DNA of 64,000 nt from Bdellovibrionales bacterium (lineage in GTDB: Bacteria; Bdellovibrionota; Bdellovibrionia; Bdellovibrionales; JAGQZY01). The translations under genes and the position numbers were made by a program. The stretch lies in NCBI GenBank assembly GCA_965218815.1, contig CBDCLX010000002.1:217074-281073 (forward strand). Direction: 5' to 3'. The first letter of the stretch is position 1, and every line of letters begins with the position of its first letter. The notes below the pieces were generated by a model. It was not told the origin of the DNA, searched no databases, and worked only from the letters and a program-made list of their open reading frames with translations. Below, piece after piece: positions 4,362-17,932 of this stretch.

Positions 4362-5375
4362 ATGAAAGACATTAAAGCATTTCTTATATTCTTGTTTGTT
4401 TTTGGAATTGTTCATTTTCCATCACTGTTGTTGGCTAATCTGAAAATCCATAGTCTGATTGATGTTATTTCTCCAACAGCCTGGGAGTTGAGGAAGACAC
4501 GCAGGATTTTTAGAGAGCTGGGCTATGATCCCGAATATTTAAGTAGAGAAGCTCCGGAACTCGATATCAATGAGTTGGCCATTGCGGTCAACGATCCGGC
4601 TCTAATTCTTACTATGAATAGAGTAGCCGGTCATCATGCTGGATCTTTTGAAGACATAAAAGACTGGGATCTATATGAGGAATTTTTCTATGCTATTTTC
4701 GATCCTCGGAAAAAGAGGCAGGCGGACTCTCTTTTTGATGTCCTTAAAAAGGATGTTGACAATTATATTAATGCTGCAGAAGAGGGCAAAAAGACCGGAG
4801 CTGGTCCTGATTTTGATTTTTTTAAAGAAACTGAAGATTTAAAAAAGAATAGAAGTACCATAGTGATTGAACAGTGGGTCAATGAGACAAGGCAAGTGGA
4901 AGAGGGATTGTCAGAATATTCGGCACAATTTAACCTGTTCGATTTTGTCGCTGTTGTGGTGGGTCGTTTTGACCGGATTGTCCGGAGTGCGTCTGTGACT
5001 GATGCTCCTCAGTTATTGAGAAGGTATTTGTTCAGGGTTGGTGGGGAAGGAACAATTGATGAAAAAATTTTCGCAGTATTCTCAAGTCTATCTTACCGTC
5101 CTACGAGAGGGGATACTCATGATTTTTTGGTGTCCAGAGTCCTGCAAAATGAAGAAGCCTTGAATGATGCACAGGTTCTTTTAAAAATCTGGAAACATCC
5201 CGGGACAAAAAGAAAAGAAACCAGAACGCAGTTGGGGGAAGCCATCATTGAGAAAAAACGAAATCTGAACTCAGAAAGTGATTTGGCTGAGAACAAGTTA
5301 TTTTTTGAAGCCTTATTTGTTGCCGCCAGAGAGAGTGATGGGTTTTCCCGTTTCCTCACTACTCTTTATAACTAG
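4362..5375 (+). CDS. Secreted hypothetical protein
   Basis: 337-aa ORF with an N-terminal signal-like segment. No recognisable family. Confidence 0.65.
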   Translation: MKDIKAFLIFLFVFGIVHFPSLLLANLKIHSLIDVISPTAWELRKTRRIFRELGYDPEYLSREAPELDINELAIAVNDPALILTMNRVAGHHAGSFEDIKDWDLYEEFFYAIFDPRKKRQADSLFDVLKKDVDNYINAAEEGKKTGAGPDFDFFKETEDLKKNRSTIVIEQWVNETRQVEEGLSEYSAQFNLFDFVAVVVGRFDRIVRSASVTDAPQLLRRYLFRVGGEGTIDEKIFAVFSSLSYRPTRGDTHDFLVSRVLQNEEALNDAQVLLKIWKHPGTKRKETRTQLGEAIIEKKRNLNSESDLAENKLFFEALFVAARESDGFSRFLTTLYN

Positions 5376-5559
5376 TCGTACAAATATGGTTTCAGATTCA
5401 GGGGAAAAAGGGGGATCAACCCAAAGGGCCTAAAGAAAGGTTTTTTTTAAGCCTCTTCACCTATAAGAGAAAATCCTTTCATCCCTTTTAAATCATTGGC
5501 ATTTGAAGGATTCATCATCACTATGCTGCCGTCATAGGGACAAGGAGACAAAAACCCCG

Positions 5560-6402
5560 TAATCACTGGTCAGGTTTCTTGAAAAACGGGAATTTTTAAT
5601 GGGTATTGGAACTTCAAAAGATGAGGCTGAAACCAGTATACGGAAAGTGAATTATGTCATTGTCTTCACTTTTTTCAGTTTTTTCCTCTTTTTAACGGTA
5701 TTCAGTTTTTATTTTGTGCGTGAGGTGATCCGGCCCATTGAATCTCTCATAAAGGCATCAAAGGAGTTGAAGGAAAAAAGAAAGGCCTCCTTCATCCCCA
5801 ATCACAGTCAAACGGAAATTGCTGAACTGATTGCTTTTAATGAAATGAGTGGCCAGATCATTGAGTCTGATAAGAAAATGCAAAAACAACTGGAACTTCT
5901 GGAACAGGCCAACAGAAAAATCAAAAACACCCAGGGCCAGCTGGTTCAGTCGGCCAAACTGGCCGGTTTGGGAGAGTTGGTGGCGGGGATCGCCCATGAA
6001 CTCAACAATCCCATTGGTTTTATTTACTCAAATATCAGTCATCTGAGAAATTATATGGAATCTCTTTTTGCGATTGTTGATAAAAGTCATGAATCAAAAA
6101 CAGATATACAGACTTTTATGGAGAAAAATGATTATCCCTACATTAAGGAGGATCTTCCAAAGTTAAAGGCTTTTGAGGAAGGGTCCAAAAGGGCAAAGGA
6201 TATTGTGCTGGGACTTGGAAGTTTTTCCCGCTCAGACAAAGATCAGACAAGTGACTTTGATGTGAACAGTGGACTTGAAAGTACTTTGGGATTGCTCAAG
6301 GGAGTTTTTAAAAACAAAATCACGATCCACAAAAACTATACTGAAGTTCCAAAAATCAGATGCAATATCAATCACCTCAGGTTCCTCTCATGGAAGCAAT
6401 GA
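5560..6402 (+). pseudogene. Sensor histidine kinase fragment (TM-HAMP-HisKA, truncated in HATPase)
   Basis: TM helix, HAMP-like RPIESL..., H-box GELVAGIAHELNNPIGF. Homology breaks at CNINHL (about 6375), before the N/G boxes. The N-terminus is frameshifted or missing. Confidence 0.8.
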
Positions 6403-6571
6403 TTTTGAGTTTGCCCTTCTCATATTGGGATTGTTTATTTTTTCTATGAAAATCACAAAAGATAAATAGTCCTTTAAAAAAGTTGTTATTTTTTAAAAAA
6501 TGTCATATCATATAATCTTTTGAAACTTTAATTAAACACAAGCTGTCTAAAGGTTCTAAAAGGAAATCTTT

Positions 6572-9500
6572 TTGTCTCAATCTGATAAAACCATTATAAG
6601 TCCTATAGCCATTGACCTTGGTGCCAAAAACACAGGCGTTTACTTTGCCCATTATAAAGCTGGCAGTCCTCTGAAAGAGATAGAAAAAGAGGGCAAAGTC
6701 TATCAGCTTGAAAAAAACAAATACACCTTATTAATGGTAAACAGAACGGCAAAACGCCATCAGAGACGTGGCTTTGACCGCAGACAGATGGCCAAGCGGC
6801 TTTTCAAACTGATCTGGGAAAAGCACTTTGGATTTAAGTGGGATAAGGACGTACAGCAAACCATTAGTTTTCTAATGAACCGCCGGGGTTTTACTTTCCT
6901 GACGGAGCAATATGATACTGAAATACTGAGTCGGTTCCCAAAAGAAGTCCATGATCTTTTACCAGACGAAATAAAGAAAAAAGTTCAAGAATACGAAGAA
7001 AACGATGCCTATAATTTTGATAGTGCCCTGAAAGATTGGGCCAAAAAAGACGAAGTAAAATCCATACTTAAGGCACTCAAGATAAGAGAAAACAGTGAGG
7101 AAACGGAACTGAAAAAATTAATTTTGGATTTTAAGACAGAAAGTTTTAAACTCGAAAATAAAAATTTCAAAACTCCAGAGCAACCTGAAGAAAATGCTCA
7201 AAATGAAGAAAAAAAGGATTATAAAAAAGATGTTTTTAAATGGAAACAACTTCACCTTCAACATCTTGTCTTTGCAATTTATAAAACCCATGACGAACTT
7301 GAATCAGGTGGTCGTCATCGTAGTAAATATTTTAAGGAAGTTGAGGATGTGTTAAACTGTGATAATCATAATCATGGCTATTTAAGGAGATTTTGTAAAA
7401 AACTTGACTCACAAAACTTCAACTTTAAGGGTTCTATCATTGAAGTGAAAACATTATCTCACTTAATCAGCCATATTAGCAATCTTGAACTGAAACCTTT
7501 ACGAAAATATTTTAATGATGAAAAACACAAAAAAGATGATTACTGGCATGAAAATCGCTTAAGGAAGATATTTGAACGCTGGATATTACATCAGTGGCGG
7601 GTGGATCCAGAAAAAAATAAAGACAAAGCCGAAGATAAAGATGGAGATTATAGAAAACTTTGTGAAGATTGGAAGAGCCACGAAGGTGAACTTGTAGATT
7701 TTTGGCTGAAAACAAATCCACTTTTTACTATTCCTCCCTACCAGAATAATAACAACCGACGACCTCCCAAGTGCCAGAGTCTCATCCTGAATGTTAAATT
7801 TTTAAACAGAATTTATCCTAAATGGCGGGATTGGTTGGAGGAGTTAAAAAAACTGGACTCAATCAAATTCTACCTTGGATTGATTGAAAATCAGGAATTA
7901 TTACAAAAGGAAGAAGAACAAAAAACCAATACAACAAAAAAGGATCAATACTACAAGTATGAAAAAGAACTCAAAGAACCTAAAAGTGGTAAAGGTAAGT
8001 CTTACTTTAATGATGAGGAAGATAGTTCTCTAAAAAGCAAAAACAAACGACGAACCAACTTTAGTCAGAGAGATCAAACAGATCTTGAAACCCGTACTCT
8101 TCAGTTTATTTTTGATCGAGTCAAGGACAATGACCTACTTAAACTCAATGAGATATACAGCCATGCAAAAAAAATCAAACAATTAAAGAGAGACTGGAAA
8201 GTTTCTCAACAATTTGCACAAATTTATGATGAGGATACAAGAAAAGCAAAAGAAGAACTGGATAAAGTCAGAACAACACTTGAAGAAACTCTTGAAGAAA
8301 GTAAATTGTCAGAGAATTTAAAAATAGGATATAATTTTAACAATGATGGTCTTTTTCCCGACGGCTCATTTCTCCATTTGATCTGCAAATATTATAAATT
8401 AAGAAAAAGAGCCAAAGAGGGTCGACTGTTTATTCATCCAGAGTACAGATACAAAGGTAAGAGTCGTGGTTACGAAAATACAGGACGTTTTGATGATAAA
8501 AACCATTTGCTCACTTATTGCAATCACAAACCAAGACAAAAGCGTTATCAAATGTTTTGGGATTTAGCGGGTTTGTTTCAGGTTTCATCTAAAACACTAA
8601 AAGAATTTATTGAAGAAAAAGATGGAAATACAACAGATGAGAAATTATTTAACTGGTTGAAAGACTTCAATGGTTTAAAAAGCAATTGTGAAAAAGCAGC
8701 AAAAGAACAAAAAGACCGTCGAGGCAGTTTAAAATCAGATATTCAAAGTGTTTTTAATTTGATTTCTTATAAAAAGAAAAGGTCATCCCATGACAAAGAA
8801 CTTAAAGACTCAGAAATCAAAATAATTTTAGAAAATTCAAAAGTGAAAGAGGCTTTTAAACTTTATAAGTTCTGCAACAAAGCTAAAAGATTAGCCCTAC
8901 AGATTACAGAAAATTTATATGATAGTTGTTCAAGACAGAAAAAGTGGAAGGAGAGTTTAGATAAAAACCCAGCCACTGCTGTGTTCTTCCTTGCTCAGAT
9001 CAATAATCTTGTTTTTAAAGAACGTAATGGCAATGCTAAGACTTGTCCTGTGTGCAGTGCTGATAATGCCCACCGTATGCAACAAGATGAGAAAGAAACC
9101 AGCACAAAAGCCCAACGTCTTTCTGCTATCAGTACACGTATTATTGACGGAGCGGTTATGAAAATGGCAAGGATTGTGAGTGGAGCTATTGCCAATGATA
9201 AATGGGAAAAAATTAAAGGGGAACTGGGAAAAGGTAACAAGGTTTGTATTCCCATTATCACGGAATCCAACCGTTTTGAATTTGAACCAAATTTGAAAGA
9301 TCTGAAAGGAAAAAAGAGCAATAGAAATGATAAGACATCAGAAAATATTTTTTCTGAGAAAAAAGACCGCATCAGACAGGCTGGCAATGGCATTTCTCCT
9401 TATTCAGGAGATCCAGTGGGAGATCAAGGAGACCTGGATCACATTATCCCCAGATCCCACAGAATATGGGGAACACTTAATGATGAGGCAAACCTTATTT

Positions 9501-11650
9501 TTACTAGTCAAAGAGATAACCGTACAGAAAAAGGAAACAACGAATATTCTTTGGAAAACTTGAATGCAAAATATAAAAGAGAACAATTTGAAACTGATGA
9601 TAAGGAAAAAATTCAGGAATGGATTATTGACCAAATTGGTGATGGCACAGATGAGGATTTTAAATTTGGAAAATACAGAAGTTTTATCAATTTAACACAA
9701 GATCAGAAAAAGGCCTTCCGTCATGCTCTTTTTTTGGATGGTCATTCTTTACGTAAAAAAGTCATCAAGGCCATTAACAATCGAACCAGGGCACTGGTTA
9801 ATGGAACCCAACGCTATTTTGCTGAAGCATTGGCAAATACTCTCTACAAAAAAGCCAAATTTATAAAAAAGGAAACCTTATTATCTTTTGATTATTTTGG
9901 TGTTGAAGCACAAGACAATTCACGGGGTGATGGAATCTATAATTTGCGTAAGGAACTTGTGGAATATTATAAACCTGATTTAAAAAGATACAATAAAACA
10001 TCAGAAGAATCTCAGGACTTATATTCACATCTCATAGACGCACAAGTAGCTTTTTGTATGGTTGCAGATGCTCACCGAAAAGAAGGAAGTTTAAAGCTCT
10101 GCCTGACTGATGATGAGGGACTTTGGTCTTGTGTTGACAGGGAGACAGGGGAGATTGTTCCCGAAAAAAATAAAATTTATGATGAAAGATTGTTTAATTT
10201 TATCCAAATAGACAGAAATTCCTTTAAAAAAGAATCTCTAATTCGTAAAAAGCCAAAGCCTAAAAAGAAGAATATTTCCTATCGCCCCTTATTTAATGAG
10301 AATGCTGTTGCCATGCACTTTTTAAAATTAATTCAAATTGATTTTAAAAAACAAAAACAATTCCTCTATCTACAGGGATTTCTTTCCTTGAATGATTTGA
10401 AAGAATGTCTTGAAGATATAGATGATGAGAATATGAATCAATCTCTAAAAGAATATGAAAAATACGCAAAAAGGATTCCAGATAACATCCTGGAAAACAC
10501 AAGAAACCTTTATCTTGATAGATTTAAGACTGTCAAAGAACAAAAAACAGGGATAACTGTGATTGAGGGTTTTGGCAGACAAAAGGCTGACATAAGAATT
10601 TACAGTTTGAATAAAACAACAGTCTATAATTTTTTGATAGAAAAATTTAATTCAAAAAAATCTTTTTTGCCAGATGAAGAAGATTTATCAATTTTAAAAA
10701 TTTTAGAAAAATCCTGGTATTTTACCAAGAAAGAAAACGTACTGAAAAAAAATAAGACAAAAGAAGAAGAGTTTAATAAACAAAACGTAAATAAATTTAA
10801 ATATGCAGGTTTTATCAATCCACAATTGGAATATGAATGGAAAAATCTTGAAAACAGTATCAATGAAAATAATACAGGTAAGACAATATATGAAAAAGTT
10901 GAGAATCATTTTTTGCATAAGAAAGAAAAAGATACAGGAGAATTCGTAAAAAAACATGATCACGAGCATCAAAAAGTAAGAAAAGTCTTTTCCCTGCCCA
11001 TAAGGAGTCAAAAAGGGTTCTTAATTAAAAAGAAAAACTGGAAAAATGAAGATGTTTTTTATTGTCGCCCTGCCAGTAATGATTTTTCACAGACAGTCTT
11101 ACACAAGAATCCATCTGGAAACATACCAGATACAAATAAAGATGAAAGACTGTCTAATATATACAGAAAAAGTAATATTTTTTATATTGCAGATATAACG
11201 AAATTAGAAAAGCAGTTAGAGTCTATAGATTCTGATCTGGCAATTGATCCAAACAAATATTACAATGCTGAAATTTCAGAAAAATTTAAAGATTATATGA
11301 ATAAAATTAAAAACAAAAGAACTGAAGAATCCAGATCCCAATTTAGATTTTATTTAACTTCAAAAAATAAAATGGATTTTGAAACATTTAAGGAATTTAT
11401 CTCATCTTATCCGTTTAGAACATTACAGGATCTAAAGGCTAAATACAGGGAACAGTATATTGATTCTTTACAAAATGAAGAAGATATAGAAGAAAAGATA
11501 AATGAAATTGAACAGATGGAAAATAAACCAAAAAATCTTTTACCCACACTGAAGCAGTTTCATCAGTTCTGGAGAGGTTCGCAGAAAGAAGAAATGTTAG
11601 AATATTCAGCCAAACACAATTTTACTCTTTCTGCCTCTGATGGAAGATAA
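6572..11650 (+). CDS. cas9: Type II-B CRISPR nuclease Cas9 (FnCas9-like), 1692 aa
   Basis: RuvC-I PIAIDLGAKNTGV, Arg-rich bridge helix NRTAKRHQRRGFDRRQ, Zn-site motifs PPKCQS / YCNH / TCPVC, RuvC-II IITESN, HNH DLDHIIPRSH...DEANL...DN...KGN, RuvC-III YSHLIDA. Long blocks are collinear with Francisella novicida Cas9 as I recall it. TTG start with AAGGA SD. Confidence 0.97.
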   Translation: MSQSDKTIISPIAIDLGAKNTGVYFAHYKAGSPLKEIEKEGKVYQLEKNKYTLLMVNRTAKRHQRRGFDRRQMAKRLFKLIWEKHFGFKWDKDVQQTISFLMNRRGFTFLTEQYDTEILSRFPKEVHDLLPDEIKKKVQEYEENDAYNFDSALKDWAKKDEVKSILKALKIRENSEETELKKLILDFKTESFKLENKNFKTPEQPEENAQNEEKKDYKKDVFKWKQLHLQHLVFAIYKTHDELESGGRHRSKYFKEVEDVLNCDNHNHGYLRRFCKKLDSQNFNFKGSIIEVKTLSHLISHISNLELKPLRKYFNDEKHKKDDYWHENRLRKIFERWILHQWRVDPEKNKDKAEDKDGDYRKLCEDWKSHEGELVDFWLKTNPLFTIPPYQNNNNRRPPKCQSLILNVKFLNRIYPKWRDWLEELKKLDSIKFYLGLIENQELLQKEEEQKTNTTKKDQYYKYEKELKEPKSGKGKSYFNDEEDSSLKSKNKRRTNFSQRDQTDLETRTLQFIFDRVKDNDLLKLNEIYSHAKKIKQLKRDWKVSQQFAQIYDEDTRKAKEELDKVRTTLEETLEESKLSENLKIGYNFNNDGLFPDGSFLHLICKYYKLRKRAKEGRLFIHPEYRYKGKSRGYENTGRFDDKNHLLTYCNHKPRQKRYQMFWDLAGLFQVSSKTLKEFIEEKDGNTTDEKLFNWLKDFNGLKSNCEKAAKEQKDRRGSLKSDIQSVFNLISYKKKRSSHDKELKDSEIKIILENSKVKEAFKLYKFCNKAKRLALQITENLYDSCSRQKKWKESLDKNPATAVFFLAQINNLVFKERNGNAKTCPVCSADNAHRMQQDEKETSTKAQRLSAISTRIIDGAVMKMARIVSGAIANDKWEKIKGELGKGNKVCIPIITESNRFEFEPNLKDLKGKKSNRNDKTSENIFSEKKDRIRQAGNGISPYSGDPVGDQGDLDHIIPRSHRIWGTLNDEANLIFTSQRDNRTEKGNNEYSLENLNAKYKREQFETDDKEKIQEWIIDQIGDGTDEDFKFGKYRSFINLTQDQKKAFRHALFLDGHSLRKKVIKAINNRTRALVNGTQRYFAEALANTLYKKAKFIKKETLLSFDYFGVEAQDNSRGDGIYNLRKELVEYYKPDLKRYNKTSEESQDLYSHLIDAQVAFCMVADAHRKEGSLKLCLTDDEGLWSCVDRETGEIVPEKNKIYDERLFNFIQIDRNSFKKESLIRKKPKPKKKNISYRPLFNENAVAMHFLKLIQIDFKKQKQFLYLQGFLSLNDLKECLEDIDDENMNQSLKEYEKYAKRIPDNILENTRNLYLDRFKTVKEQKTGITVIEGFGRQKADIRIYSLNKTTVYNFLIEKFNSKKSFLPDEEDLSILKILEKSWYFTKKENVLKKNKTKEEEFNKQNVNKFKYAGFINPQLEYEWKNLENSINENNTGKTIYEKVENHFLHKKEKDTGEFVKKHDHEHQKVRKVFSLPIRSQKGFLIKKKNWKNEDVFYCRPASNDFSQTVLHKNPSGNIPDTNKDERLSNIYRKSNIFYIADITKLEKQLESIDSDLAIDPNKYYNAEISEKFKDYMNKIKNKRTEESRSQFRFYLTSKNKMDFETFKEFISSYPFRTLQDLKAKYREQYIDSLQNEEDIEEKINEIEQMENKPKNLLPTLKQFHQFWRGSQKEEMLEYSAKHNFTLSASDGR

Positions 11651-11680
11651 CTTATATGAAATAATTCAAAAGGTTTATTT

Positions 11681-11920
11681 ATGAGTCCGACAATATTTAA
11701 ATCAAATGGATACCGGTTTTTCTTTTTCTCAAGAGAGGAGACAAGAAAACATGTTCATATCTTTTCAACAGATGGTGAATCAAAATTTTGGTTGGAACCG
11801 GAGATTGAACTTGCAAAAAATTACCATCATTCAGAAAAAAAACTTAGGAAAATTAAAAAATTGATAAAGGAGCATTATGATGAACTCATCAACGCCTGGG
11901 AAAAGCATTTCGGAAATTGA
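11681..11920 (+). CDS. DUF4160-family protein (predicted toxin of a DUF4160/DUF2442 TA pair)
   Basis: MSPTIF..NGYRFFFFSREE.R.HVH...GESKFWLEPEIELAKNY...AWEKHF is the characteristic DUF4160 pattern. Confidence 0.85.
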   Translation: MSPTIFKSNGYRFFFFSREETRKHVHIFSTDGESKFWLEPEIELAKNYHHSEKKLRKIKKLIKEHYDELINAWEKHFGN

Positions 11921-12146
11921 AGTGACGAATATCTCTTCACATGGTTTATGGTTGTACGTCCATGATGAAGAGCTTTTTATGTCCTATGAGGATTTTCCAT
12001 GGTTTAAAGGAAAAACCCTTGAGGCTGTTCTGAATGTTGAGGAAGTCTCTCTGGGGCACTATTACTGGCCAAAAATTGACATTGATTTGACCAAAGAGAT
12101 CATTCAAAATCCTGACAAATTTCCACTCAGGTCAAAAGTGAAATAG
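11877..12146 (+). CDS. DUF2442-family protein (predicted antitoxin partner)
   Basis: EVTNISSHGLWL....EELFMSYEDFPWF...VLNVEEV..GHYYWP.IDIDL is the DUF2442 pattern. It overlaps the upstream gene, and its TAG overlaps the cas1 GTG by 1 nt. Confidence 0.85.
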   Translation: MMNSSTPGKSISEIEVTNISSHGLWLYVHDEELFMSYEDFPWFKGKTLEAVLNVEEVSLGHYYWPKIDIDLTKEIIQNPDKFPLRSKVK

Positions 12147-13102
12147 TGAAACATTTAACCATTAGTGAATACGGAAGTTTTTTGGGTCTTGAGGTCAATC
12201 GCCTCCTGGTGAAAAAGGGAGAGGAAAAACGTCATTACCCACTCAATAGGTTATCAACCATCAGTATTGCAAAAAAAGGAGTCAGTCTTTCCAGTGATCT
12301 CATTGAGGCCCTCAGTGCCCGTGGGATTAAGCTGTTCTTTCTTGATTTTCGTGGAGTGACTCATTCAGCCCTTTTGGGACAATCCCAACATGGAGTGGTG
12401 GCTGTAAGGTTGGCACAACAGACCTTCTGTCAATCCGGTGATCTTAATGTTGCTGTCCAAATTATCCTTGGAAAAATTAAAAACCAAAGAGCTGTCCTGA
12501 ATTCTCTTTATAAATATCACCGCCATATATCACTCTCTCGTGTGTCTGAAGAACTCCTTTCAAATACAAAAAAAATAAGAGAAGTAAAAAACATTGAGAC
12601 TCTGTTGGGTCTGGAGGGAGCCAGTGCCTCTGCTTATTTCCAGGCGTTGCGTGAGGCTCAACTTTTTTCTTCAACTTTTGTCCGCAGGGAAGGGCGTGGT
12701 AGCCAGGAAATTAACAACTCCATGCTTAACCTTGGTTATGCCGTATTAAGCAGTTATGTCCTTAATTCCATTGTCAATGCAGGATTGGAACCCTACCTTG
12801 GAATACTACATAGTAAACGTCCAGGGAAAATGGCACTTGTCCTGGATTTAATGGAAGAGTATCGAGCCTGGGTTGTTGATAGGGCTGTGATTAAACTCCG
12901 TCAGCAGAGTGAGGGGAAAAACTGTCTGGATCAGAAACTTAAAAAAACATTCATCAAAGAAATCCAAACAACCTGTTCTAAAAAATATCCTTATCGTAAA
13001 AAGAAGCTCAAACTGGAACACATTATCCAACGTCAGGTGTACCGTCTTTGTGGTCATTTTTATAATGAAAAATGTTATAAACCTTACCTGTTTAAATGGT
13101 GA
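12146..13102 (+). CDS. cas1: CRISPR-associated integrase Cas1
   Basis: LLGLEGASASAYF, NSMLNLGYAVL, GLEPYLGILH, LVLDLMEEYR Cas1 motifs. Confidence 0.95.
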   Translation: MKHLTISEYGSFLGLEVNRLLVKKGEEKRHYPLNRLSTISIAKKGVSLSSDLIEALSARGIKLFFLDFRGVTHSALLGQSQHGVVAVRLAQQTFCQSGDLNVAVQIILGKIKNQRAVLNSLYKYHRHISLSRVSEELLSNTKKIREVKNIETLLGLEGASASAYFQALREAQLFSSTFVRREGRGSQEINNSMLNLGYAVLSSYVLNSIVNAGLEPYLGILHSKRPGKMALVLDLMEEYRAWVVDRAVIKLRQQSEGKNCLDQKLKKTFIKEIQTTCSKKYPYRKKKLKLEHIIQRQVYRLCGHFYNEKCYKPYLFKW

Positions 13103-13402
13103 ATGATGAATAAATTAAGGCAGGAATATTTAATTAGCTATGATATTGAAGACAATAAAATACGCACCCAATTGTATAAAGAACTTGTAGGATATGGGTT
13201 GCGTTCTGTTCAAAAGTCAGTGTTTTGGGGATATTTAAGTATTGCTGAATTACATTCTATCCAAAGAGATTTTCAAAGGCACCTTGATTCTCCTGACAAG
13301 GCTTTTATTACCCGTAGCAACTTCAATGGCAGAGGGCAGAGTTACTTTATTGGTCATTGTGAAAAAGATTTTAAGGATTGGGAGGAAAGTGATGTCATCT
13401 AG
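13103..13402 (+). CDS. cas2: CRISPR-associated Cas2
   Basis: YLISYDIED....LYKELVGYGLRSVQKSVFWG, 99 aa, directly after cas1. Confidence 0.95.
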   Translation: MMNKLRQEYLISYDIEDNKIRTQLYKELVGYGLRSVQKSVFWGYLSIAELHSIQRDFQRHLDSPDKAFITRSNFNGRGQSYFIGHCEKDFKDWEESDVI

Positions 13403-13970
13403 CATTCCCGTTAATCTTATTCGTCAATGGTCTTATTGCCCAAGAGTTGTTTACTATCAGGAGATGACAGAATTATCCAGGGTTGTCCACCCCTCTTGGG
13501 TAAAACAGGGTGAAATTTTTCATGAGGAAGAGAGTTTGCTTTGGCAAAGACGCAACTTATCCCGATTCAATCTAAAAGAGGGAAAAAAATACCATAACCT
13601 CTCCATACAAAGTCCCAATCTGGGACTCCATGGCATTGCCGATATGGTTATCGAAACAGATGATACTGTTTATGCTGTTGAGTTTAAATTATCCACCAAT
13701 AATAAAAAAAGAGGTGATGTATTACAACTGGTGGCATACGCCATGCTGATACAGCAATATTTTGAAAAACCAAGTCCCATGGGCTTTTTGATTGGAAAAA
13801 ATAAAATATTGCATCAAATTGTTATCGACCAGGAAAAATGCGAACAAGTCAAAATAATAGTCAGGGAAATTCGGATCATGATGGAAAAAGGTCAAAAGCC
13901 AGAGTCCAGTGCTTTTCTCACCCAATGCAGTGCTTGTGAGTATGTCAACTTTTGCAATGACAGACTTTGA
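13392..13970 (+). CDS. cas4: CRISPR-associated exonuclease Cas4
   Basis: Cys pattern QWSYCPR ... QCSACEYVNFC with the GIADMV / AVEFK / QLVAYA RecB-like motifs. The start is placed at ATG 13392 (GGAGG at 13381) rather than the track start of 13242. Confidence 0.93.
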   Translation: MSSSIPVNLIRQWSYCPRVVYYQEMTELSRVVHPSWVKQGEIFHEEESLLWQRRNLSRFNLKEGKKYHNLSIQSPNLGLHGIADMVIETDDTVYAVEFKLSTNNKKRGDVLQLVAYAMLIQQYFEKPSPMGFLIGKNKILHQIVIDQEKCEQVKIIVREIRIMMEKGQKPESSAFLTQCSACEYVNFCNDRL

Positions 13971-13982
13971 ATTTTGTTCTGG

Positions 13983-14018
13983 GTACAAAAAAACCGCATA
14001 AATGCGGTCTTTTTGTAC
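13983..14018. terminator. Bidirectional intrinsic terminator (cas4 on +, tracrRNA on -)
   Basis: gtacaaaaaaaccgcat-aa-atgcggtctttttgtac: a GC stem with A and T tracts on both sides. Confidence 0.8.
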
Positions 14019-14110
14019 TCTCTAAAAGAGAGTCAGACGTGATAATCAGAGGTCCGTTCATAATACTTTTTGATGATTACAGGTCATCAATAATGGGTTA
14101 TACTGAACTA
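13988..14110 (-). ncRNA. tracrRNA
   Basis: The minus-strand 5' part ucaguauaacccauuau (14090-14106) is a perfect 17-nt complement of the crRNA repeat. The following cuguaaucaucaaaaaguauuaugaacggaccucugauuaucacgucug closely resembles the F. novicida tracrRNA scaffold as I recall it. It ends in the terminator hairpin. Confidence 0.9.
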
Positions 14111-14112
14111 TG

Positions 14113-14141
14113 ATTTTACAATATGAACTGTATTTTGTCCA
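14113..14141 (-). promoter_or_regulatory. Sigma70-like promoter of tracrRNA
   Basis: Minus strand TGGACA-N17-TAAAAT, ending a few nt upstream of the anti-repeat. Confidence 0.65.
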
Positions 14142-14254
14142 TATTTTTCAACTTTTTTCGCAAAAAATGCCATGTTTTTAACAATCAGCAAACTTGCGAA
14201 AAAATATTTTCAAAGCCTCCTGCAATTACCTGATTTAACAGGATAATTGCAGGA

Positions 14255-14941
14255 CTTCCATCAGTATAACCCATTATCCAGACACTGAAACTCGGTTTTA
14301 TTTCGCAGACTTGCCGAGATTGAAGAACTTCCATCAGTATAACCCATTATCCAGACACTGAAACATGGCTAAACTTAGTTGTATGTTAATAAAACGTACC
14401 TTCCATCAGTATAACCCATTATCCAGACACTGAAACTTGTTTTGGGGAAAAACTGCTTATGCACGGAAATTACTTCCATCAGTATAACCCATTATCCAGA
14501 CACTGAAACAACAAAAGACAGATTTCCATTATTTCAAACTTATACTTCCATCAGTATAACCCATTATCCAGACACTGAAACTATGTTAATTGTCAAACAC
14601 TCAGAAAACCCTCCCACTTCCATCAGTATAACCCATTATCCAGACACTGAAACCATATTTCTGTGTCAGCTAAAGTTTTAGCCAATCTTCCATCAGTATA
14701 ACCCATTATCCAGACACTGAAACAGCAAAAGACAGATTTCCATGGTTTCAAACTTATAAACTTCCATCAGTATAACCCATTATCCAGACACTGAAACTTT
14801 AGCACATTTGCTTGAAAAAAAAGATTATTTCACTTCCATCAGTATAACCCATTATCCAGACACTGAAACAGCTCCATTTGTTCGCTTGTAGACAATCCTT
14901 CCACCTTCCATCAGTATAACCCATTATCCAGACACTGAAAC
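14255..14941 (-). CRISPR. Type II-B CRISPR array: 10 identical 37-nt repeats, 9 spacers of 33-37 nt
   Basis: Repeat GTTTCAGTGTCTGGATAATGGGTTATACTGATGGAAG (minus strand) starts on + at 14255, 14328, 14400, 14473, 14545, 14617, 14687, 14761, 14833 and 14905. The GTTTCAG start resembles the Francisella II-B repeat. Orientation is inferred from tracrRNA pairing. Confidence 0.98.
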
Positions 14942-15462
14942 TACCTGGTGCTGTTCGAAAAAACAATGTGCCTTTTCTTCCATCTCATCGTTAGGGGACA
15001 GAGGGTTTTCCCTTATTTTTTCAAGACTCTTTGTTTTGAAGGATATTTCCACGGAATCCCGGTCTGTTGCATCAGGATTAACAATATTAAAACTGATCTT
15101 CCTAAGAGGACCCTGATCATTTGCATCTCTAACATAAATGACTGTAGTCTCGTTGTCAGGGGAATTTGTAATTCTCATTTTAACCTTGTTCTCACTCTCA
15201 AATTTACGTTTTTGACCGAGTGGCGGATTAGGCGTAAAAAAAGAAATTAAACAATCAAAATACTTTACAGATCTAGTATTCTCTGCCGCTATTGATCGTG
15301 TTTCCTGGTTATAATATCTGACCTTTGGACTTTTGGATCCTTGGGTGAACTGCTGAAATGTAAGGTTATTTTTAGATGGCATTGAAGAGCAGGCTCCAAG
15401 GATCGAAACCAGAATTAAAGAGACAAATGAAAAGCCACTGTTTTTACAAATCCAGTGGTCAT
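14924..15462 (-). CDS. Putative lipoprotein whose 3' end reads into the CRISPR array (probable 1-nt frameshift near 15418)
   Basis: Lipobox ILGAC. ATG at 15462 gives MTTGFVKTVAFHLSL, which joins ILVSILGAC with one indel. The stop TAA lies inside repeat 10. Confidence 0.55.
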
Positions 15463-15470
15463 AATAAGGT

Positions 15471-15827
15471 AAAATCTTTTCATAATCGCTCCTCTGGACT
15501 CTCAGAAAACAGGGCAAGTCAGTGAGACTTGCCCGGGTTCAAGGTGATACTCCTACTGGTTGGGGATTCCCAACTCAACTCCCCTTTAAAAGGGCTGCTG
15601 CTGGATCTATCCACCAGCACCATACAGATGTGTGGTTTATTGAAACAATCCAATGACTTTTCTGACCATATTTTCAAGTGCTGCGATATCGTCCGCAGAT
15701 TCACCAAGAGATGTTACAGCAGTCATACTTTTTGTTGTAGGATCAATACTATAATTCATTTGTCCCAGGGATGCACCCTCTCCTGTAGAACTTAACTTGT
15801 CTGCACGGAGATAGGAGGAACCACTAG
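15471..15827. repeat. 357-bp direct repeat, copy A (3' end of the 18687-19643 gene)
   Basis: Same sequence as 18518-18874 apart from 3 substitutions I could see. It ends at CTAG, where IS1380 begins. Confidence 0.9.
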
Positions 15828-17147
15828 CCCGAACTTCTCATAAAGTTTGATTGAAGTCCTGTTTTTCTGAAATTTTAGTGGAATTTTCAGTCATTCCCAT
15901 TTTCCATAATGGTTGTTGAATAAAATTCTTCATTTTTTAACCAGTAGCAAGTCTTTGAAGAGATTTTTCAATGAAATTGATAAATTTTAACAACTTCCAG
16001 ACAAAACTCTGCCTGAACTCTCATGGAATCTAAAAATATTGCTTGATTTAAAGAAAATAAAAACTATCCGTAGCAAGCCTTTAAATTTATCATAATCCTG
16101 CGAAATAAATCCATAAAGGGATAGCCCGATGACATCTGAATATAAACCCTGCGAACACTCACCTTTACCAAAGCTCCTATCTTAAAAAGTTTCAACCTGA
16201 TTGTGGAACATTGAGCCTTGGCAAGGGCTGTACCCTTTAAGGCTTTCCTTCTCAACTCACTTATGAGAACATACGACACACTGGAAAGCCAAAGCCTGAG
16301 TTGATTGGATGTAAAATCATGAGTGCTCGTTCGGTCGGCAAACAAACATAACTGCTGCCCCTTGATCCTGTTCTCCATATCTCCACGGGCACAATAAAGC
16401 TCCTCATACAATGACTTGCCCTCATACTCCTGTTTGCAAAGGAAGATAACAATAGTTCCCATAATATCCATGGAAAAATCGATCCTCCTGATCCCCATGA
16501 AGAGGATCATCGGTGGCATCAAAATCAAGCCCAATCTCCTTGGGGGCTTTATCATGGGAATTTAAGAAAGTGGTTGCAAAAAACTCCTCCACCTTATCGG
16601 GATGACAAACAATCTTCTTGTATCCCTTGACTGTATGGGCTTCATGGGAACCCAACTCCAAACGATTTAATGTGCTTTTCCCTGCCAGGGCCGCTCCCCT
16701 GTCTGACTCTTTTGGACGATCCAATCCCATGGGGTCTGTCTTTCCAACCAGAGTGTGGTGCCAACAAAGGGTCTTTTCTTAAAACTTCATGATCGTTAAG
16801 GTCCTCATAACCAAGGCAAATTCCATAGACTCTCTGTGCAAGAAGATTTTTTAGAGGGTGTTCCACATATCTTTGATCCCTGTGGTCGGTGAAACAATCT
16901 GAAAAGCTTTGAAGAATTCCTCGCTTCTTATCAACTTCTGCCAAAAGCAGGGAACCGGCATCCGAGGTCACATGGCCTGCTGAAAAATCAGCAACCACCT
17001 TGCGTTGTCCCAAACCTTGAAATTCAATCTGTTTTGTAAAACACTCTGTATTCATGGGGAGTCCTTTCGTTTTTTTGTAATACCTCAATTTTATTGAGGA
17101 AATAATGAAAGTCACTCCCTTTTTCTATTTCTTGTGAGAAATTCGGG
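15828..17147 (-). mobile_element. IS1380-family insertion sequence, internally deleted (1320 bp)
   Basis: TIRs cccgaacttctcataa and (reverse complement) cccgaatttctcacaa (14/16). CTAG lies on both sides (15824-15827, 17148-17151). Confidence 0.85.
16064..17055 (-). pseudogene. IS1380 transposase, frameshifted and internally deleted
   Basis: Fragments TSDAGSLLL, GYEDLNDH, AGKSTLNRLE, LDFDATDDPLHG.QE.RFFHGYYG.YCYLP, then a jump directly to YCARGDMENRIK..NQLRL. Confidence 0.9.
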
Positions 17148-17275
17148 CTAGGACCATGCCAGTCTTTCAGAATGAGTTATTGTCAAAAAAAGAACAAAAA
17201 AGGATGTTTTATGGATATGGACATCCTCACTTTTTGTCAAGCACCTCTATTTTCGATTTCAGTTCAAAATAACCA

Positions 17276-17330
17276 TATAATGAATGAAGTTGCACTTTTT
17301 TCAACAAAAAGTGCAACTTCATTCATTATA
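17276..17330. promoter_or_regulatory. Perfect 25-bp inverted repeat: putative AbiEi autoregulatory operator
   Basis: tataatgaatgaagttgcacttttt-tcaac-aaaaagtgcaacttcattcattata immediately upstream of abiEi. AbiE operons are known to be autorepressed through a long promoter inverted repeat. Confidence 0.75.
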
Positions 17331-17932
17331 TGGAAATGGGACAAAATGAACTTAAAAAGCAAATTGATCGGCTGCTTCCACTTGGAGTCTTCTCAACAAA
17401 AGAAGCCACCGAAAGGCTTTCCATATCGCAGCCCACACTCTCTCGTTGGATAGCTCAAAGTGACCTAATCCAGAAGGTTTCAAGGGGCTACTATGTTCAT
17501 ACCAAGGCCAGCATCAACTACGAGTATCTCGATTATATCGTGGCTTGCAAAAAGTTTGGAAAAAACGCCGTCATTGGGGGCCTTTCGGCCATAGAGTTTT
17601 ACAAACTCACCGAACAGGTTTCACCTCAAGTCTGGGTACTGGTGCCACCATTGAGGAGGGTTTCAACGGACAACAAATATAAGGTGATAAAAACAAAATC
17701 TTCTTTGAAAGTTGGAGTGACTTCAATTGAGGGATTTAGAATCGTCAGTCTGGATCGTGCCCTTATTGAAGCCCTAAAATATCAATCAAAAATCGGAGAG
17801 GGTATTGCTTTTAAAGCTGTTACTGATGCCATCAAAAGTGGGCATACATCTGAGGATCGCCTTTATAAGATGGCAAAAAAACTCAACATGATTTCATTTT
17901 TAGAAAAGAAATGGGAACTCCTAACCGCATGA
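17330..17932 (+). CDS. abiEi: AbiEi-family type IV TA antitoxin / transcriptional regulator
   Basis: N-terminal wHTH (VFSTKEA...LSRW...IQKVSRGYY), GGLSA, SLDRALIEA. It overlaps an AbiEii gene. Confidence 0.8.
   Translation: MEMGQNELKKQIDRLLPLGVFSTKEATERLSISQPTLSRWIAQSDLIQKVSRGYYVHTKASINYEYLDYIVACKKFGKNAVIGGLSAIEFYKLTEQVSPQVWVLVPPLRRVSTDNKYKVIKTKSSLKVGVTSIEGFRIVSLDRALIEALKYQSKIGEGIAFKAVTDAIKSGHTSEDRLYKMAKKLNMISFLEKKWELLTA

Follow-up and report, generated by a model that had tools for sequence, protein, structure and literature searches.

Why does a Cas9 operon carry two small genes between its effector gene and its adaptation genes? The question is raised by a 64,000-nucleotide (nt) stretch of DNA from a Bdellovibrionales bacterium (assembly GCA_965218815.1, contig CBDCLX010000002.1, positions 217,074 to 281,073 of the forward strand; hereafter the window), in which genes for a DUF4160 protein, a putative toxin, and a DUF2442 protein, its putative antitoxin, lie inside a type II-B locus of CRISPR, short palindromic repeats that are clustered and regularly interspaced. 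Canonical type II-B loci, those of Francisella and Legionella, have the order cas9-cas1-cas2-cas4. The cas9-cas1 junction of the window departs from this layout by a 495-nt insert with two genes. The same pair occupies the same junction, in the same order and on the same strand, in many independent loci, which is neither chance nor a one-off insertion, and we read it as a known toxin-antitoxin (TA) family that has a new place within a class 2 operon, where it is conserved and co-evolves. The junction is made up of the following features, given with their positions in the window.

6572 to 11650, plus strand: cas9, type II-B (Csx12 subfamily), 1692 amino acids (aa), TTG start, a single uninterrupted open reading frame (ORF); PF21069 and TIGR03031
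11651 to 11680, plus strand: spacer of 30 base pairs (bp) from the cas9 stop to the toxin start, with an AAAAGG ribosome-binding-like motif
11681 to 11920, plus strand: DUF4160 gene, DhiT-family putative toxin, 79 aa; Pfam PF13711
11880 to 12146, plus strand: DUF2442 gene, DhiA-family putative antitoxin, 88 aa; Pfam PF10387, start inferred from homologues
12146 to 13102, plus strand: cas1, GTG start, 318 aa; Cas1 domain, start overlapping the antitoxin stop

An earlier reading of this DNA (the original prediction) had placed a DUF4160/DUF2442 pair inside a type II-B operon, and the profile searches bear this out. The toxin matches the full PF13711 profile (positions 1-65, E 8e-17, 61.7 bits, cutoff 23) and the antitoxin matches PF10387 (E 3.4e-12 to 3.5e-12, 46.9 bits, cutoff 23.9); no further Pfam family was found in either protein at E <= 10. 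Cas9 scores 622 bits against the NCBIfam II-B equivalog TIGR03031, above the cutoff of 399, and contains the Csx12 lobe (PF21069, E 5.7e-114), and Cas1, Cas2 and Cas4 domains are all detected downstream. The predicted 30-bp gap after cas9, the overlap of the small genes and the TAGTG with cas1 are all visible in the ORF listing and the sequence. The toxin and antitoxin ORFs are in different frames and share 41 nt, the antitoxin start lies inside the toxin ORF, preceded there by an AAGGAG ribosome-binding site, and the antitoxin TAG (12144-12146) and the cas1 GTG (12146-12148) have one G in common. DUF2442 has two candidate starts, 11877 and 11880 (89 and 88 aa), and the second ATG, as in the homologues, is most likely the true one.

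The original prediction also called DUF4160/DUF2442 a predicted TA pair; the family assignment stands, and the family is by now validated (PMC8198452; persistence module PMC12724237). In Dickeya dadantii 3937 the DUF4160 protein DhiT inhibits the growth of Dickeya and E. coli, and co-expression of the DUF2442 protein DhiA abolishes its toxicity (PMC8198452). The window pair shares with dhiTA the two Pfam families, the reversed order (toxin then antitoxin), overlapping frames and small proteins. It is distant in sequence, its ORFs overlap by far more than the approximately 4 nt in Dickeya, and it lies inside a cas operon, coupled to cas1 and apparently with too little space for a promoter; dhiTA stands by itself on the chromosome as a bicistron. 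Against the NCBIfam model toxin_DhiT (NF048015) the window toxin aligns over its full length (5-76 to 4-76 of 84) and scores 19.7 bits, with a cutoff of 100, which places it by sequence in the DhiT superfamily and not in the DhiT orthologous group. The pair can be described as a putative type II TA module of the DhiTA family. On Thermus thermophilus plasmids, a DUF4160/DUF2442 pair (87 aa and 92 aa) directly downstream of rep, termed the Persistence-Enhancing Module, raises plasmid persistence, and a plasmid without the second ORF of the pair could not be introduced into Thermus (PMC12724237). By analogy, this would be the closest functional counterpart for an addiction role: the same two domains stand directly 3' of the key gene of the replicon or cassette. 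The difference is that the Thermus module lies on a plasmid after a replication gene, with persistence measured in Thermus, and the window pair is chromosomal and in a CRISPR operon.

Structure prediction gave a toxin model of five strands and two helices (AlphaFold, mean predicted local distance difference test score (pLDDT) 90) for which Foldseek returned nothing significant in the PDB (best E 0.7), and an antitoxin model (pLDDT 83) whose best PDB match, 3k8r, is a protein of unknown function. PDB sequence searches with the two proteins were empty or spurious. Neither model has an informative PDB neighbour, and no toxin mechanism can therefore be derived from them. Toxin residues 22-26 form an invariant R-x-H-x-H motif, accompanied by invariant E19, E20 and S29, which recalls a partial histidine triad. 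The label 'HIT family hydrolase' that several homologues carry at JGI is supported neither by Pfam at E <= 10 nor by Foldseek.

How widespread is the arrangement? In collections with one genome per species, 45 loci matched a Cas9 profile; nearly all are from marine metagenome-assembled genomes, and many are sponge-associated (e.g., Poriferihabitaceae, Arenicellales, Bdellovibrionales, Nitrospira). These loci were scanned with hidden Markov models (HMMs) built from homologues of each small protein, and in 38 of them the cas9-cas1 junction is readable. An intact pair with the same junction, order and strand was present in six of the 38 (L005, L009, L012, L014, L017 and L028) and a decayed one in four (L001, L004, L013 and L023); these ten of the 38 belong to Chlorobiota, Nitrospira, Thermodesulfobacteriota and several gammaproteobacterial groups. 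Metagenome contigs L058, L059 and L060 from ENA also carry the pair at the junction. The two closest database homologues of the window toxin (87% and 84% identical) occupy it in L058 and L059, and the closest Cas9 relatives, in L059 (78%) and L060 (58%, both by local alignment), are accompanied by the pair. L060 encodes P0002, the Cas9 that came closest in the protein database (55%), and this contig has the full pair; the toxin gene had been missed by the original gene caller. In all related loci that carry them the two genes are adjacent and on the same strand, with the toxin first and the frames overlapping, the gap between cas9 and the toxin measures 22-38 nt, and no pair was found elsewhere in the flanks of the 45 genome-collection loci (up to 10 kb each side). 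The cas1-cas2-cas4 order is kept in 37 related loci. The survey of relatives that the original prediction had proposed thus argues against a random recent insertion: related loci carry the pair too, and an insertion scar is absent from the window. For most relatives the same survey agrees with the expectation of an empty cas9-cas1 junction in canonical II-B loci: in 24 of the 38 the two genes overlap (typically by 4 nt) or lie no more than about 110 nt apart. The 446-nt cas9-cas1 gap of L034, the nearest pair-less Cas1 relative of the window, contains no pair remnants.

The original prediction had proposed a test of whether the pair is congruent with Cas9. Toxin-antitoxin identity correlates with Cas9 identity (r = 0.68), but the pair tracks the adaptation genes more closely (r = 0.93 with Cas1 identity), both values coming from 21 non-independent pairs among 7 loci. 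Two groups stand out. The window, L059 and L058 form one (Cas1 89-94%, toxin 84-87%, antitoxin 78-85% identical), and L012, L014, L017, L028 and L060 the other (Cas1 83-93%, toxin 82-88%, antitoxin 69-86%). The Cas9 of L060 is among the closest to that of the window, but both its pair and its Cas1 fall in the second group (Cas1 83-86% identical to that group, 73% to the window). Such a mosaic implies that the pair moves with the adaptation cassette when cas9 and cas1-2-4 recombine, and the mismatch between the Cas9 and Cas1 phylogenies indicates that the effector and adaptation modules of II-B loci have recombined with each other. Even if the pair were a mere hitch-hiker, it would document that the adaptation cassette of II-B loci undergoes recombination as one block, apart from cas9.

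Further measures point to a long shared history with the cassette. Synonymous divergence (dS) between the window and L059 is similar for toxin (0.66), antitoxin (0.52) and cas1 (0.76), and from locus to locus the third-position guanine-cytosine content of the pair varies with that of the neighbouring cas genes (r ~0.9). The median ratio of nonsynonymous to synonymous divergence (dN/dS) among CRISPR-linked copies is 0.10 for the toxin, 0.12 for the antitoxin and 0.05 for cas1, so both genes of the pair are under purifying selection, with function retained. A Cas1 tree (neighbour-joining, no bootstrap) has one clade in which all eight loci bear the pair or its remnants; three more patches consist of the window group, of L005 and of L013. 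Taken together, the pair would be a stable, co-inherited passenger of cas1-cas2-cas4 in one large-Cas9 II-B lineage of marine, largely sponge-associated bacteria. The reading that we favour, with confidence evenly balanced between acceptance and doubt, is that of a DhiTA-type addiction or stabilisation module that was captured by the II-B adaptation cassette and is co-expressed with it.

A passenger need not be an addictive one, and the stand-alone relatives of the pair bring in a simpler explanation. Free-standing chromosomal pairs of this subfamily are frequent in the same microbiomes. The stand-alone pair of L046/L047 is 86% (toxin) and 80% (antitoxin) identical to that of the window. Nitrospira loci L141-L148 and loci L204-L208 have additional copies, and more distant ones lie on viral contigs; in 55 such contigs the DUF4160 relatives were at most 56% identical and no II-B cas1 was found. 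Only directly inspected loci were counted as CRISPR-linked. An indirect linkage of database homologues was rejected, P0254 (L205) being stand-alone although it shares a 950-kb contig with a Cas9 homologue. Homology between the window and L046 extends from the toxin start codon to the antitoxin stop and no further, and hence the transferable unit would be just the two ORFs, the promoter region not being common to the stand-alone copy. A DUF2442 tree of 128 short sequences (neighbour-joining, no bootstrap) lacks resolution, the CRISPR-linked copies falling into at least two groups mixed with stand-alone ones. A mobile TA cassette could have landed once or a few times in a permissive site and have persisted because it is hard to delete, with no effect on the CRISPR locus. 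We judge such neutral hitch-hiking very doubtful. The close relatives in the same microbiomes, the copies on viral contigs, the patchy distribution and the repeated decay are what it predicts, but the pair co-diverges with Cas1, has been found nowhere else in the flanks, and keeps an identical position and cas1 overlap although the pair and cas1 are near or past synonymous saturation (dS ~1.4-2.6). In practice, hitch-hiking differs from the favoured addiction module only in a measurable addiction effect on the locus.

A side observation concerns these relatives. In sponge-associated Nitrospira-like loci L048-L057 (~7330-8270) and in L207 (500-1652) a close DUF2442 homologue lies near a nucleoside 2-deoxyribosyltransferase-family gene; DUF4160 stands between the two in L207 and is absent in L048-L057. 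The site is a variable slot downstream of a UvrD helicase, where L141-L148 have the plain DUF4160/DUF2442 pair, and DUF2442 may have alternative toxin partners.

The decayed copies are informative about the activity of the toxin. In L001 the toxin gene has a 1-nt deletion and substitutions of invariant residues, and the antitoxin is intact. In L013 the toxin gene is reduced to its last ~20 nt (HMM scans suggested up to ~18 codons), again with an intact antitoxin; in L004 the toxin is truncated in the same way, the antitoxin is frameshifted and cas1 is intact; L023 retains a 58-nt remnant only. In the clear cases the toxin was lost first, as would be expected of an active toxin. L013 also bears a recombination scar (15010-15140), in which the initial ~93 nt of cas1, in a diverged duplicate, overlap the cas9 stop and are followed by the toxin 3' stub, the antitoxin and a full cas1; it seems that an illegitimate joining event brought the adaptation cassette with the antitoxin into a cas1 already present. 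Because the pair is missing from about three quarters of the related loci and has decayed repeatedly, it is dispensable for CRISPR function. Under the favoured reading the module is selfish and is not required for immunity, as its absence from most relatives and the toxin-first decay suggest.

How would such a pair be expressed? Canonical type II TA modules carry their own autoregulated promoter. The 30-bp spacer after cas9 appears too short to leave room for a separate one, and no terminator-like site was found between cas9 and cas1 of the window. In this region, promoter-like matches are about as frequent as chance would give (27 found, 26.6 expected), and for that reason the counts of the promoter and terminator scan were set aside. 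A conserved GAGGA/AAGGAG motif inside the toxin gene precedes the antitoxin start. The overlap of the antitoxin stop with the cas1 start, to which the original prediction had drawn attention, is real and is kept wherever the antitoxin gene is unbroken, in 11 loci altogether (as TAGTG, TAATG, TGATG, ATGA or TTGA), the exceptions being L058 (a contig of 4x coverage with a frameshifted antitoxin) and L004 (an antitoxin pseudogene). In pair-less loci it is mostly the cas9 stop that overlaps the cas1 start, a layout that the antitoxin/cas1 overlap reproduces. From the short gap, the missing terminator and the overlapping frames we infer co-transcription, and the simplest reading of the sequence is a single cas9-toxin-antitoxin-cas1-cas2-cas4 transcript with cas1 translation coupled to antitoxin translation.

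This coupling raises the possibility that the antitoxin or the TA complex sets the levels of Cas1-Cas2-Cas4, for example by permitting spacer acquisition only while the antitoxin is translated, or during toxin-induced dormancy. Such a role in regulating the adaptation genes seems to us quite improbable. It would account for the cas1 overlap of every unbroken antitoxin gene, for the co-segregation with cas1-cas2-cas4 and for the retention of the antitoxin beside cas1 after toxin loss in L001 and L013, and it has precedents: the DhiTA complex represses the promoter of its own operon in Dickeya (PMC8198452), and dormancy that buys time for adaptation is an idea from the literature (PMC3506569). 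Yet pair-less loci reach the same coupling directly from cas9, cas1 stayed intact in L004 after its antitoxin was frameshifted, DUF2442 has no recognisable DNA-binding fold, its best PDB match being the uncharacterised 3k8r, and no conserved operator was identified.

Returning to the addiction module that we favour, its working can be pictured in four steps. The operon would be transcribed as cas9-toxin-antitoxin-cas1-cas2-cas4 from the cas9 promoter. The toxin would be translated from its own weak ribosome-binding site and the antitoxin from the strong AAGGAG site in the 3' end of the toxin gene, and the antitoxin would neutralise the toxin by binding, by analogy with DhiTA and the Thermus module. 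Ribosomes that end the antitoxin would re-initiate at the overlapping cas1 start, as they would from cas9 to cas1 in pair-less loci. Were the locus deleted, not inherited or shut off, the antitoxin would presumably be degraded sooner than the toxin and, provided that the latter is active in this host, growth would stop. The cas locus, and especially its adaptation cassette, would thereby become addictive.

Several points weigh against this addiction reading. The pair and its remnants are absent from 28 of the 38 related loci (~74%), and any benefit therefore cannot be general. The pair-bearing loci fall into about four patches on the Cas1 tree without bootstrap, and several gains, losses or recombinational spread must consequently be assumed. 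A Cas1 profile run on another metagenome collection found the pair in none of 80 further II-B-type loci, of which 8 belong to this Cas9 clade (5 with a readable junction) and the rest are distant and largely gut-type II-B; this last result again fits the canonical layout. The correlations that tie the pair to Cas1 come from non-independent comparisons. In L058 (1285-1543) DUF2442 is split by a 1-nt insertion and DUF4160 is apparently intact, a possible counter-example to toxin-first decay, although the low coverage of the contig makes a sequencing error likely. The window toxin is only a distant relative of the experimentally tested DhiT, as its score far below the model cutoff indicates. There appears to be no room for a promoter of the pair's own, and homology to the stand-alone L046/L047 begins only at the toxin start codon, so expression and the toxin-to-antitoxin ratio must depend on other features. 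Finally, the Dickeya dhiTA cassette gave no better plasmid maintenance in E. coli.

Other cargo at the same junction suggests yet another role. In L039 (14871-15599) and L041 (14913-15641), metagenome-assembled genomes of Halieaceae and Poriferihabitaceae, a 242-aa ORF of the Fic/DOC family stands at the cas9-cas1 junction (Pfam Fic, E 4e-11; PADLOC SoFic / PDC-S04, E ~1e-9). The junction may be a hotspot for toxin-type cargo. In L038 (14380-17877) a 3.5-kb insertion with a repetitive K/E-rich ORF, a HAD-like hydrolase and a 78-aa ORF without a family match splits the cas9 body from its C-terminal segment (16599-17423), and this Cas9 is probably inactivated.

Could the pair be a backup for failing immunity? 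With host or cas expression shut off by a phage or an anti-CRISPR factor, the antitoxin would no longer be replenished; the toxin would be released and would halt growth of the infected cell in the event that Cas9 immunity fails. Such an abortive-infection or anti-anti-CRISPR function is in keeping with a pair inside the operon and apparently without its own promoter, and the Fic/SoFic-like defence gene of L039 and L041 suggests that the site recruits suicide effectors. DUF4160 is the C-terminal effector domain of Menshen anti-phage proteins (PMC12065111), the coupling of immunity and suicide is an established hypothesis (PMC3506569), and CrePA offers a precedent among RNA-based modules (PMC12737573). 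We nevertheless regard the backup as unlikely: neither protein matches a PADLOC-DB v2 defence model at E <= 0.01, the pair tracks cas1 and not cas9, which is unexpected for a sensor of Cas9 failure, and it has frequently decayed and is absent from most loci.

Toxin genes inside cas loci are themselves not new. HEPN, RelE or PIN fusions and neighbours are found mainly in type I and III loci and are associated with the hypothesis of immunity-suicide coupling (PMC3506569); like the window pair they are toxins within cas operons, but they belong to other toxin families and other CRISPR types. CreTA, CrePA and CreR are CRISPR-regulated RNA toxin-antitoxin modules that guard type I and V systems (PMC9458426, PMC12737573), and the original prediction had likened the pair to CreTA. 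The likeness lies in a TA module nested in a cas locus and in the proposed outcome, a loss or silencing of CRISPR that cells cannot afford. It does not extend to the mechanism. The Cre modules consist of RNA toxins or RNA antitoxins from degenerate repeats and need the Cas effector for repression, whereas both window partners are proteins under purifying selection, nothing suggests a dependence on Cas9, and the system that hosts them is of class 2, type II-B. Near 11651-12148 neither a degenerate nor an ectopic repeat was found; in the scanned stretch 5001-16500 the sole repeat-related sequence outside the array is the anti-repeat at ~14065-14109. We have therefore excluded a CreTA-like mechanism, both partners being conserved proteins (dN/dS ~0.1) with no ectopic repeat nearby.

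To our knowledge, TA modules guarding CRISPR loci have so far been RNA-based Cre modules of type I and type V systems. The claim that the architecture is undescribed for type II-B agrees with our search, which found no published account of a DUF4160/DUF2442 pair in CRISPR or type II loci in the full-text literature, including a 2025 TA-CRISPR review; the supplementary tables of large CRISPR-linked-gene screens were outside this search, and an earlier listing there is possible. The conserved context is new, and to call the pair a new system, as was also proposed, overstates the case for a TA family that was already known. A bolder interpretation makes the pair a functional accessory: it would be the first protein-based guardian TA of a class 2 (Cas9) locus, in which cas loss, silencing or anti-CRISPR shut-off frees the toxin for addiction, abortive infection or both, antitoxin translation gates Cas1-Cas2-Cas4, and the junction is a dedicated docking site for suicide effectors, the last idea deriving from the Fic/SoFic-like gene at the same junction in another sub-lineage. 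We put this forward tentatively and think it somewhat unlikely.

If the favoured reading is true, a conserved protein TA pair in Cas9 operons would extend the guardian principle to class 2 by an unrelated mechanism, and it could explain how symbionts with streamlined genomes keep Cas9 loci despite their cost, and how these loci spread among them. The intact, toxin-dead and fully decayed copies offer a natural series for studying the toxin-antitoxin life cycle, and the compact cassette (~470 bp) is a potential stabiliser of Cas9 or adaptation cassettes in engineered strains.

The rest of the locus resembles canonical type II-B loci, with a Csx12-type Cas9, cas1-cas2-cas4, an array and a candidate trans-activating CRISPR RNA (tracrRNA). 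It differs in the two extra genes and in its Cas9, which belongs to a large (~1600-1900 aa) environmental clade known mostly from metagenome-assembled genomes of marine symbionts. Downstream of cas1 the following features were annotated.

13103 to 13402, plus strand: cas2; PF09827, E 3.2e-12
13392 to 13970, plus strand: cas4, likely starting at ATG 13392 and overlapping the cas2 end; homology covers 13401-13967
13987 to 14109, minus strand: candidate tracrRNA between cas4 and the array, anti-repeat at ~14065-14109; from the repeat duplex and Rfam
14255 to 14941, strand not assigned: CRISPR array of 10 identical 37-nt repeats, CTTCCATCAGTATAACCCATTATCCAGACACTGAAAC on the plus strand; from repeat detection

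The duplex of anti-repeat and repeat (-34.2 kcal/mol) is the best outside the array in the scanned stretch. The candidate tracrRNA matches the full model of the Francisella small RNA FtrA in Rfam below threshold (51.5 bits, E 2.7e-5). Upstream of it is a promoter-like site (14141-14113, minus strand). The array is probably transcribed from the minus strand, on which the repeat reads GTTTCAG.... Two of its spacers, at 14510-14544 and 14724-14760, are near-duplicates that differ at 3 positions, repeat and spacer together being 96% identical.

Just 5' of cas9, an ORF at 5599-6402 (plus strand) has a weak, partial HisKA match below the cutoff (22.7 bits) and no detected kinase domain; it may be a truncated sensor kinase. 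Just past the array, a DDE_Tnp_1_4 transposase (16064-17115, minus strand) is broken into at least two ORFs and represents a degraded insertion sequence. It is followed by a long, near-perfect hairpin or palindrome (17260-17353) that gives spurious microRNA-family matches on both strands.

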